From a virus: a stretch of 36,357 nt of DNA. Under the pieces are notes generated by a model. It ran no database searches, was not told the origin of the DNA, and saw only the letters and a list, made by a program, of their open reading frames with translations. The stretch lies in UHGV virus genome UHGV-1353415, one strand, 5' to 3'. Below, piece by piece: positions 16,115-21,793 of the stretch (positions within the stretch are counted from its first letter, which is position 1; every line of letters starts with the position of its first letter). Position numbers and translations under genes: made by a program.

Positions 16115-16474
16115 ATTTTAACTAATTGTTTTTAAACTGTTTTTTTCATTGCGGGTTTTTCAATGTATAAGTAAGTTAAGCAACTTATCATTGCACAAAT
16201 TGATAAAGATATTGCTGCAAACGCAGTATAGTTTAATGAGCTTGAAATGAAATTAAAGGTCATTACCATGCTTAAGCCATGCATCAAATAAATGCTGTAA
16301 CTTACAGAACCCGCCACCTTGAAGAACTTGGTGTTTATAATTTGAAAAGCTTTGGAGCCAGTACACGCACTTAAAAAAAACAAAAATAGCGGAATCACTA
16401 TGTAAACATTGTAAATGTTAAAGTCCTGCCAGTATGCAACAGCAATAAGCGATAAAAGGGGTAATGACTCCAAC

Positions 16475-20057: not shown

Positions 20058-20402
20058 TTAGTCCTTGCGTAGCTCGCTGATTCTTCTGTAAGTCTCTGGT
20101 GCTTTGTTTCCGTGTATCTTCATTTCAGACTTCAACAGAGCAACGAGAGAATCCCATTCGTTGAGGATGCCTTTGAATGCCGGAACGCGCTTTGCAACCT
20201 TGTCGAATGAATCTCTGATTTCTGGAATCTGCTCAACAAGTGCAACGCATCGTCTGAAATCGGCTGCGTCATGTGGAGCACCGAAGCCATGACCATAGAT
20301 ATTCTTTTTCAGTCCACATGCGATTGAGGCAAGAGTTGCGCTACTGATGCCAACATCGCCAGTCGATTGCCATTTCAAAACTTTCATAGCCAAATCTGAC
20401 AT
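20058..20402 (-). CDS. hypothetical protein
   Basis: 114-aa ORF with SD GGAG 8 nt upstream; directly downstream of two hairpin terminators. Confidence 0.5.
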   Translation of the reverse strand: MSDLAMKVLKWQSTGDVGISSATLASIACGLKKNIYGHGFGAPHDAADFRRCVALVEQIPEIRDSFDKVAKRVPAFKGILNEWDSLVALLKSEMKIHGNKAPETYRRISELRKD

Positions 20403-20410
20403 TTCTTGTC

Positions 20411-20470
20411 TCCATAAAACAAAACTCGCCGTAGCGAGTTCAGATAAAAGAAAACCCGCACTCGGCGGGT
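20411..20470 (-). terminator. two tandem Rho-independent terminators (minus strand)
   Basis: Minus-strand hairpins ACCCGCCGAGTGCGGGT + TTTTCTTTT and ACTCGCTACGGCGAGT + TTTTGTTTT. Confidence 0.5.
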
Positions 20471-20750
20471 TCGCATTCGTTCAAATTGCGTTTACTTCTT
20501 GGCGTTCTGTTCATCCATATCGATATACCATGGGTTGCTTCCCTTGGGCATGTTTAACGACTGCTCGCGATAGTATCTGATGCGCTCCATGAAATACTCG
20601 CGTGAGTGCTCAGGTTGCTCTCATGATACCTGCTCAGTGATAACAGGCATGTTAAGGCGCTCTCTGTACTCCATGCCTGATGCTGCAAGGTCAACGTTTA
20701 CCTTGTTCTGTTTTTCTTTCGATTTCTCGGCGATGTTATGCCTGACATTG

Positions 20751-20993
20751 TCAACCCGCCTCCTTCTGAACATAACGGTTATAAATCAGTCCCTGAGGGC
20801 CATAAGGAAGCGGGATGTGCAACTCCTCTGGTTCAGAAACTATCCATTCCCCGGCCATCTCCGCTGGAGAGGTAATGATAAGTTGTTTGCTAATAAAAGG
20901 ACCACTCCTCTCAACAACAAGCTTACCATCTTCATTAATAAAAGCTTGGATGTCAGGTGTGCTTCCACACTTGGTGATGCAGCGTTTGAACAT
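20751..20993 (-). CDS. hypothetical 80-aa protein (accessory gene with own promoter)
   Basis: ORF MFKRCITKCG..; extended -10 promoter upstream and terminators downstream on the same strand. Confidence 0.5.
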   Translation of the reverse strand: MFKRCITKCGSTPDIQAFINEDGKLVVERSGPFISKQLIITSPAEMAGEWIVSEPEELHIPLPYGPQGLIYNRYVQKEAG

Positions 20994-21000
20994 TTTGTGT

Positions 21001-21008
21001 CCCCCCCC
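21001..21008 (-). repeat. G8 homopolymer (C8 on + strand) in the 5' leader / SD region
   Basis: Minus-strand ATGGGGGGGGACACAAA ATG; tract sits where the ribosome-binding site should be. Confidence 0.7.
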
Positions 21009-21025
21009 ATTTTATGTACGGGGTA

Positions 21026-21060
21026 ATTATAACACATTGAAATATAGTAATATTTGACGT
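21026..21060 (-). promoter_or_regulatory. extended -10 promoter (TGTTATAAT on minus strand) for the 80-aa gene
   Basis: Minus-strand TGnTATAAT at 21026..21034, about 33 nt upstream of the ATG; -35 weak. Confidence 0.4.
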
Positions 21061-21121
21061 AGATTTCTTTTGATCTATAAGCGGTTTTTTAATGCTTTTA
21101 AGTTATAAATACTTGTTTTCA

Positions 21122-21793
21122 TCACCCATCTTGCTGCGGTGCTACTATTGAAAAGTACTCACACCCTTTAGCCCAAATAGTTTTGATAGTTGTCCAACTG
21201 ACTGGAACCTTGATTTCGATTCTCCCGCTGCCGTCACAAGTTTCGCAATCATCATCACCAAAGCATTCCGGGCAGCTTATAAACGTAGTTTCTGAAAATT
21301 CACCGGATAGCACACCCTTAGCGCCGTTCTCAGCGGTTAGTTTCTTCGGCACTATAACCCAACCATCCGGAGTTACCGGAGAGTTGCCGGGTTCTTTAAT
21401 GTGCAAACGAGGCTCACCATCTTTTGGTTCAGGCCACTGACGTTCCATGTTGATCTTCAATTTATTTTCCATAGCAGCGGTAATTTCAGCATCACTGATA
21501 CCGGCACGGCGCTGTGCATCCCACAACAGGAACTGCATATCAGCCCACTCGCTGAGATCGTCAGGTTCGGCTGCGGCTTCCAGAGCCTCTTTTGAGAGGT
21601 GTTTCAGTGGACCAATGGGGCCAACGCAGCCAAATGTGGAGTCAGACCATTTGGCATGCTCGTGGCGAATCTGTTCGCGTTCCAGTGATGCCAGTGCAAT
21701 TCGTGCCAGTTCCATTTGTTCGCCACGAGTAAGCCCGTTTTCAAGCGGATTTTTAATGAATAATTCGATACGTTCTTTGGTAATAGTGGTCAT
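21122..21793 (-). CDS. MazG-like nucleotide pyrophosphohydrolase-domain protein with C-terminal Cys-rich (zinc-ribbon-like) region
   Basis: 223 aa; N-terminal ..EWADMQFLLWDAQRRAGISDAEITAAMENKL.. MazG-like pattern; C-terminal CPECFGDDDCETCDGSG. Confidence 0.45.
   Translation of the reverse strand: MTTITKERIELFIKNPLENGLTRGEQMELARIALASLEREQIRHEHAKWSDSTFGCVGPIGPLKHLSKEALEAAAEPDDLSEWADMQFLLWDAQRRAGISDAEITAAMENKLKINMERQWPEPKDGEPRLHIKEPGNSPVTPDGWVIVPKKLTAENGAKGVLSGEFSETTFISCPECFGDDDCETCDGSGRIEIKVPVSWTTIKTIWAKGCEYFSIVAPQQDG

Follow-up and report, generated by a model that had tools for sequence, protein, structure and literature searches.

Analysis of a 36,357 bp stretch of DNA (the window) revealed a homopolymer of eight G residues that occupies the position at which diverged homologous loci carry a Shine-Dalgarno (SD) sequence, and whose length differs from strain to strain. 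We consider it probable that this tract represents an ordinary SD that has turned into a homopolymer and is now slipping, and that it is a tolerated mutational hot spot rather than an on/off switch.

The G-run and the gene that follows it

The plus strand of the window reads tCCCCCCCCa at 21000–21009, which places a C8 tract, or G8 on the minus strand, exactly at 21001–21008. On the gene (minus) strand the run and leader read ...AAAATGGGGGGGGACACAAAATG, and the sequence across the tract is TGTGTTATAATTACCCCGTACATAAAATGGGGGGGGACACAAAATG. Between the run and the start codon of an 80-aa gene is a 7-nt spacer, ACACAAA (20994–21000, minus strand), which is constant in alleles of six to ten G (G6–G10), with the rare variant CACAAA arising through an A deletion or an A to G change. 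These positions confirmed the initial annotation, which had placed a G8 run 7 nt ahead of the start codon of the 80-aa gene. Its view that the run is the only plausible SD was also upheld, as no second purine-rich motif was found within 25 nt upstream of the start of the 80-aa ORF.

No G/C run in the 36,357 bp other than the C8 tract reaches six residues, with 443 runs of three, 103 of four, 19 of five, none of six or seven and one of eight. In a first-order Markov simulation about 31–34% of windows had at least one G/C run of eight or more, and the presence of one such run is by itself not significant. The window is depleted of G/C runs of six or more (1 observed versus 7.9 expected) and the tract is atypical of the local distribution of run lengths, presumably because it arose by expansion of a G6 allele. 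There is one other homopolymer of eight in the window, an A8 at 16373–16380. On the gene strand, a short C-run that precedes the G-run (21020–21023, GGGG on the plus strand) also varies in relatives, in which it is CCC, CCCC, CCCCC, CCAC or CCCA.

The 80-aa gene (20751–20993, minus strand; ATG at 20991–20993) encodes WP_000476264.1, a member of PHROG 9613 (E = 2.6e-50). Compared with a 70%-identical homologue in locus L012 it has a dN/dS of 0.12 (dS 1.6, dN 0.20). Based on the PHROG membership, this dN/dS ratio and the annotation of the gene as a CDS by PGAP in all relatives, we regard the ORF as a real gene under purifying selection. Its start codon could also be fixed at 20991–20993, since the N-terminus MF..C is kept in homologues of 45–70% identity (always as MF..C or ML..C in those of 45–52% identity) and several relatives have in-frame stops upstream of it. 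The protein is very common in E. coli, being present in 5961 blocks of the contig index. Searches with it against Pfam, PADLOC and PDB sequences gave no match. The family is narrow, as a HMMER scan of 1.84 billion representatives found just 11 relatives, and a profile search of genome contigs with the family alignment found no relative. An AlphaFold2 model based on a five-sequence alignment was unusable (pLDDT 42, pTM 0.28). The C-terminal half of the protein (…EELHIPLPYGPQGLIYNRYVQKEAG) was observed fused to unrelated N-termini in other prophages (L013 3001–3138; P0007, P0009 and P0006), which points to mosaic recombination inside the gene.

To the slot occupied by the run we compared six lineages of relatives, which extended down to 45% identity and included Pectobacterium. 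The aligned columns of the slot contain, besides GGGGGG, the sequence GGGGAG in the closest of the diverged E. coli lineages (94–98% identity), GAGGAG in L012 and L105 (70% identity), and AGAGGG, AAGGG, GAGGAA or AGGATA in prophages of Pectobacterium carotovorum and in three lineages from metagenomes (45–52% identity). In L012 and L105, whose leader reads ...GTCTAAAAGAGGAGCCACCCAATG, the canonical GAGGAG within AAGAGGAG lies 7 nt before the ATG, and an in-frame TAA is found just upstream. RNAduplex predicted pairing of the run with the 16S rRNA 3' end, GAUCACCUCCUUA, at -9.3 kcal/mol for G6 and -11.5 for G8, compared with -8.6 for GGGGAGA. The run is thus complementary to the 16S 3' end, lies 7 nt from the start codon, inside the 5–10 nt range, and is conserved in position. 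The proposal in the initial annotation that the 80-aa gene has the G-run as its SD is therefore supported by sequence comparison, because SD-like motifs hold the same slot before the conserved start in every diverged homologue.

The predicted promoter and the prophage cassette

A predicted extended -10 element, TGTGTTATAAT (21026–21036, minus strand), was read from the sequence upstream of the run and has the form T..G.TAT..T in all homologous loci, including those of Pectobacterium. A generic -35/-10 scan did not call the site at 21026–21036, as it lacks a -35 match. A CTACGTC box (21056–21062, minus strand), which is invariant in 8 of 8 aligned lineages, lies 24 nt upstream of the -10 hexamer and is probably the binding site of a regulator. 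This architecture of box, 24 nt and extended -10 is kept from E. coli to Pectobacterium prophages, and the stretch from the -10 to the SD showed no conservation in the alignment of homologous loci. In three loci (L106, L111 and L112) the box is doubled 21 nt further upstream; a 10-mer, AATCTACGTC, occurs twice, 21 nt apart, in the same three loci, with one mismatch in some copies, and these repeats may be sites at which a regulator binds. Transcription would be predicted to start near 21017–21020, which would place the run within a 5' UTR of about 25 nt. An inverted-repeat finder identified nothing in the intergenic region, and a near-palindrome read by eye, TCAAATAT-TACT-ATATTTCA, was rejected as a repeated operator, being present in a single copy in the window and found nowhere else.

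The window is an E. coli lambdoid prophage integrated beside sbcB. The 801 bp that were tested are identical to NZ_CP063515 and NZ_CP131685, and a search of the phages collection did not find a close relative of the tract region. First in gene order is a gene with a DUF550/dATP-dGTP pyrophosphohydrolase domain (21122–21793, minus strand), which is separated from the 80-aa gene by the 128-nt intergenic region that holds the run. Downstream of the 80-aa gene on the minus strand come a theta gene, which is broken by an in-frame stop, and two hairpins that resemble terminators; a 114-aa gene, an AlpA-like gene and finally the integrase follow. The 80-aa and theta genes are thus flanked by the predicted extended -10 and CTACGTC box on one side and by the twin hairpins on the other. 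Together, the CTACGTC box, the extended -10, the 80-aa gene, the theta homologue, which has decayed, and the paired terminators would make up an accessory-gene cassette located close to int, in the early-left region of the prophage.

The theta (HolE/P1 HOT-like) gene (20492–20773, minus strand; Pfam PF06440, E = 2.5e-16) has an in-frame TGA at 20621–20623, at what we take to be the position of an Arg in HolE. The lesion is old and widespread, since PGAP gave this "internal stop" label to the gene in all the relatives that were fetched, and the 50-aa truncated form is exactly what PHROG 10131 comprises. The stop could reflect a truncation that has been conserved, or be a site of read-through. 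At the 3' end of the 80-aa gene (20746–20765, minus strand) lies a strong SD, AAGGAGG, preceding an ATG at 20746–20748 that does not share the theta frame and begins an ORF of just 16 codons (MSGITSPRNRKKNRTR); the theta start assigned by PGAP, the ATG at 20771–20773, has no SD. This mismatch of the AAGGAGG and its ATG with the theta frame may represent a second, 1-nt lesion in theta or a recoding site.

The cassette is closed by the two tandem intrinsic-terminator-like hairpins identified in a terminator scan (20422–20472, minus strand), and the same pair precedes the chimeric relative in L013. The sole match of an Rfam scan of 20300–21300 was a sub-threshold rsmX located on these hairpins. 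A 148-aa antisense ORF (20580–21026, plus strand), which covers the start of theta together with the 80-aa gene and whose end passes through the C8 tract (…SPPILCTG), is unannotated in every relative and is probably spurious.

Length variation of the tract

The length of the tract was surveyed in 88 complete E. coli genomes with the 120-bp region, where it was taken from match lengths and from sequences that were fetched, and in 31 IMG/VR loci and 16 metagenome loci. Four of the 88 complete genomes carry G8 (CP063515, CP131685, VE-T2 and VE-T10, of which the last two are sister isolates), two have G9 (CM188746 and CP200347), one has G10 (CP073929) and two have G7. Nearly all the others have a tract of G6 length, which includes some GGGGAG sequences and rare spacer variants. 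The IMG/VR loci comprised 22 with G6, three with G7 and six with GGGGAG, and the metagenome contigs 13 with G6, two with G7 (one of them via an A to G substitution) and one with GGGGAG. In a collection of 15 billion proteins, the in-frame 94-aa form produced by G6 was present on at least 1000 contigs and the 95-aa form produced by G9 on eight; the G3 and G12 protein forms were absent from this collection. NCBI records with the PGAP-annotated 80-aa protein were nearly all G6, with no enrichment of long alleles, and none of the loci examined had an allele of fewer than six purines. Length heterogeneity among related genomes, which the initial annotation had put forward as a check on its proposal, is therefore real: G6, G7, G8, G9, G10 and GGGGAG all occur and the tract is not invariant.

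The length variants are homoplastic. The flanks of the G9 locus L002 are identical to those of four G6 sequences, G7 is found on at least four flanking haplotypes, and G8 is found on two, the window type and, in VE-T2, the majority haplotype. Length variants are about ten times commoner per site than substitutions in the flanks, and no site of the 613-bp region varies more than the tract. As the variants are scattered over flanking haplotypes, we attribute them to recurrent slippage; in this respect, a length that differs among strains (G6–G10) through recurrent events on multiple haplotypes, the tract resembles a contingency locus. It does not resemble one in having a hypermutable length in most of its carriers, as G6 is modal, only 7 of the 88 complete genomes have G8 or longer and the interrupted GGGGAG is common. 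The tract length was the same within each of three clonal pairs (VE-T2/VE-T10, NT1N25/NT1W25 and ETEC4089/ETEC1702).

Based on the GAGGAG and AGAGGG of distant relatives and the GGGGAG of the nearest diverged lineages, the ancestral SD would have been of the GGAG type. The most economical history would then be one A to G transition, from GGGGAG to GGGGGG, in the commonest E. coli lineage, after which the G6 homopolymer would slip during replication and G7, G8, G9 and G10 would arise repeatedly. The tract in the window would have arisen from the common G6 allele by slippage that added two residues (+2). The anti-SD is expected to pair with any five consecutive G residues, such that a register at the optimal distance would always be on offer, and expansions would be tolerated because a working SD stays at that distance from the AUG. 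The need to keep an SD would also set a floor to the length of the tract, consistent with all the changes being expansions and contractions below six purines being absent.

Effect of tract length, alternative readings and known systems

The initial annotation had proposed that changes in length alter the SD spacing. This did not hold, since in the G6–G10 alleles a constant 7 nt separate the last G from the AUG: the run has a fixed 3' edge, and extra G residues add pairing registers upstream. We modelled the consequences for translation with a rough duplex and accessibility calculation that assumes transcription starts 7 nt after the -10. The anti-SD duplex and the cost of opening the SD-AUG region were -9.3 and 4.9 kcal/mol for G6, -10.6 and 5.6 for G7, -11.5 and 7.2 for G8, and -11.3 and 8.0 for G10, respectively. 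The modelled net change was about 1 kcal/mol among G5–G8 and about 0 for G6 versus G8. In the fold model the extra G residues of longer runs pair with codons 1–6, so a longer run would gain a stronger anti-SD duplex that is offset by more self-pairing. As the gain and the cost largely cancel, the model suggests that the effect of length on translation is modest and graded, about two-fold or less, although a sizeable effect could still exist. A CCCC...GGGG hairpin was also considered; it was weak and was not predicted to dominate in the short transcript.

These considerations bear on whether the tract is a switch, as the initial annotation had suggested in calling it a candidate for translational phase variation. 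All switch-like readings taken together appear to us unlikely. One of them, in which slippage acts as a rheostat or switch for a lysogen-expressed gene through the frame of an upstream AUG and/or self-pairing with the first codons, we regard as quite unlikely. Another holds that slippage shifts the spacing from SD to AUG, switching expression of the 80-aa gene between on and off. In its favour, the tract has a length at which slippage can occur, is located in the ribosome-binding site and has from six to ten G residues on several haplotypes, and a selected contingency locus would also give the approximately ten-fold excess of length variants over flank substitutions. However, the nearest pairing register is always 7 nt from the AUG, and neither a functional spacing nor a functional frame is altered by length, as the 3' edge is fixed, the run is downstream of the -10 and the 80-aa frame is untouched. 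In addition, the modal G6 is below the lengths usual for contingency loci, GGGGAG, which is not slippage-prone, is common, the three clonal pairs showed no length difference and the modelled effect is about two-fold or less. We therefore find a spacing switch very doubtful, and the claim of phase variation was not sustained.

A third switch-like reading concerns an upstream ATG (21008–21010, minus strand), whose G is shared with the first G of the run. In the G6 allele the sequence reads ATG GGG GGA CAC AAA ATG (MGGHK-MFKR...), and this ATG is in frame with the 80-aa gene in G6 and G9 and out of frame in G7, G8 and G10; in the window, with its G8, it is the start of an overlapping ORF of 56 aa. 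In G6 and G9 a second ATG, 14 codons further upstream, shares the frame as well, and many pipelines therefore report proteins of 94 or 95 aa; gene callers give forms of 84–95 aa for these alleles. The length of the tract thus decides whether one and the same gene is called as 80, 84, 94 or 95 aa, which should be borne in mind when annotations are compared. The G8 allele also creates a 65-aa out-of-frame ORF in the ORF list (20840–21037, minus strand), which runs from the ATG overlapping the -10 box through the run. This ORF is probably not expressed, and its exact product is absent from the 15-billion-protein collection.

If the AUG at 21008–21010 were used, the tract could act as a toggle, giving an in-frame extension at G6 and G9 and, at G7, G8 and G10, an out-of-frame ORF that would occlude the authentic start 15 nt downstream. 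The frame relations are evident in the sequence, the extended 94- and 95-aa forms are favoured by gene callers (on at least 1000 and on eight contigs, respectively), and, given the size of the ribosome footprint, the AUGs at 21008–21010 and 20991–20993 are too close to be occupied simultaneously. Against this, no SD was found before the ATG at 21008–21010, the relatives of 45–70% identity have no in-frame upstream AUG, with several having an in-frame stop there, and the ATG further upstream shares bases with the conserved -10 box, which puts it outside the predicted transcript. Lengths that differ by multiples of three are not enriched either, as G7, G8 and G10 together outnumber G9. With the conserved start lying 7 nt 3' of the tract and in-frame stops upstream of it in relatives, the locus does not have the form of an intragenic frameshift switch, and we consider such a toggle to be improbable. 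That the overlapping AUG is in frame in the common allele may have a function and not be a coincidence.

Homopolymer errors are well known in long-read sequencing, and some of the G8–G10 lengths, all of which come from complete assemblies, could be miscalls. That G8, G9 and G10 are in general a true G6 miscalled in long-read assemblies is highly improbable in our view. Alleles of G8 or longer are indeed confined to complete genomes, with IMG/VR and metagenome contigs reaching G7 at most, but an identical G8 is present in four assemblies from three sources (Laos, Vietnam for two of them, and Taiwan) on two haplotypes and in different prophage mosaics. Moreover, the 95-aa product of G9 has several independent NCBI accessions as well as Logan contigs, and an error of +2 to +4 at a 6-mer would be unusual. 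The G8 length is accordingly regarded as real. That the G-repeat is the target of a C/U-rich regulatory RNA or an RNA-binding protein, with its length setting the outcome, is suggested by analogy with a variable G-repeat in another mRNA leader (PMC8322730) and is extremely improbable, as the Rfam scan of 20300–21300 found no relevant RNA, with the sub-threshold rsmX on the terminators alone, and relatives carry ordinary SDs in place of the repeat.

We return to the reading of the tract as an ordinary SD that has become a slipping homopolymer. If it is correct, a single A to G change suffices to turn a GGAG-type SD into a homopolymer, and the expansions that follow are tolerated since the 3' edge keeps its register with the AUG. 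If, on the other hand, the length of the tract does tune expression, the 80-aa gene would be a rare E. coli gene under the control of a simple sequence repeat, and on a very widespread prophage cassette. To our knowledge, repeat-based phase variation is almost unknown in E. coli.

Compared with a canonical enterobacterial SD, the tract is likewise purine-rich, complementary to the 16S 3' end and located 7 nt before a conserved AUG. It differs in being a pure G homopolymer with a G.U wobble at the central U of CCUCC, and in offering several pairing registers together with slippage-prone DNA. In an Escherichia survey of homopolymeric tracts, about 20% of the tracts of O157 Sakai were in prophage regions and G/C tracts were the rare class, with a ratio of A+T to G+C tracts of 11.6 (PMC8928963). 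The tract described here is similar to tracts in that survey in being intergenic, of six or more residues, beside a hypothetical gene and in prophage DNA; this locus is not singled out in the Results/Discussion or the HPT-detection methods of that survey.

Strain-variable G or C tracts that influence expression have been described in other bacteria. Homopolymers between the -35 and -10 of porA, opc and fetA of Neisseria alter promoter geometry and cause transcriptional phase variation (PMC5320596). The tract in the window is also an intergenic G/C homopolymer near a promoter and varies among strains, but it is downstream of the predicted -10 and promoter spacing is unchanged by it. Intragenic poly-G tracts act as frameshift switches, for example in gonococcal pgtA (PMC2193922; for a Neisseria survey, PMC5320596). 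Relative to the upstream AUG, the run would similarly be a 5'-proximal coding poly-G that sets the frame; unlike in those switches, the functional start is downstream of the run and the 80-aa ORF is never frameshifted.

As a leader homopolymer of variable length the tract has two parallels, of which the first is the looser. [quoted passage not shown] 2014, as described in PMC8322730). Our tract shares with it a 5' UTR G-repeat whose length varies from strain to strain, and differs in that no sRNA partner was detected by Rfam in 20300–21300 and in that relatives have normal SDs. In Mycobacterium tuberculosis, a poly-G in the 5' UTR of espR shows recurrent variation among isolates, and a +1 insertion raises translation through refolding of the UTR, which is a graded effect at the post-transcriptional level (PMC11898584). 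As in espR, a G homopolymer in an mRNA leader varies among isolates; unlike in espR, the tract is the SD itself.
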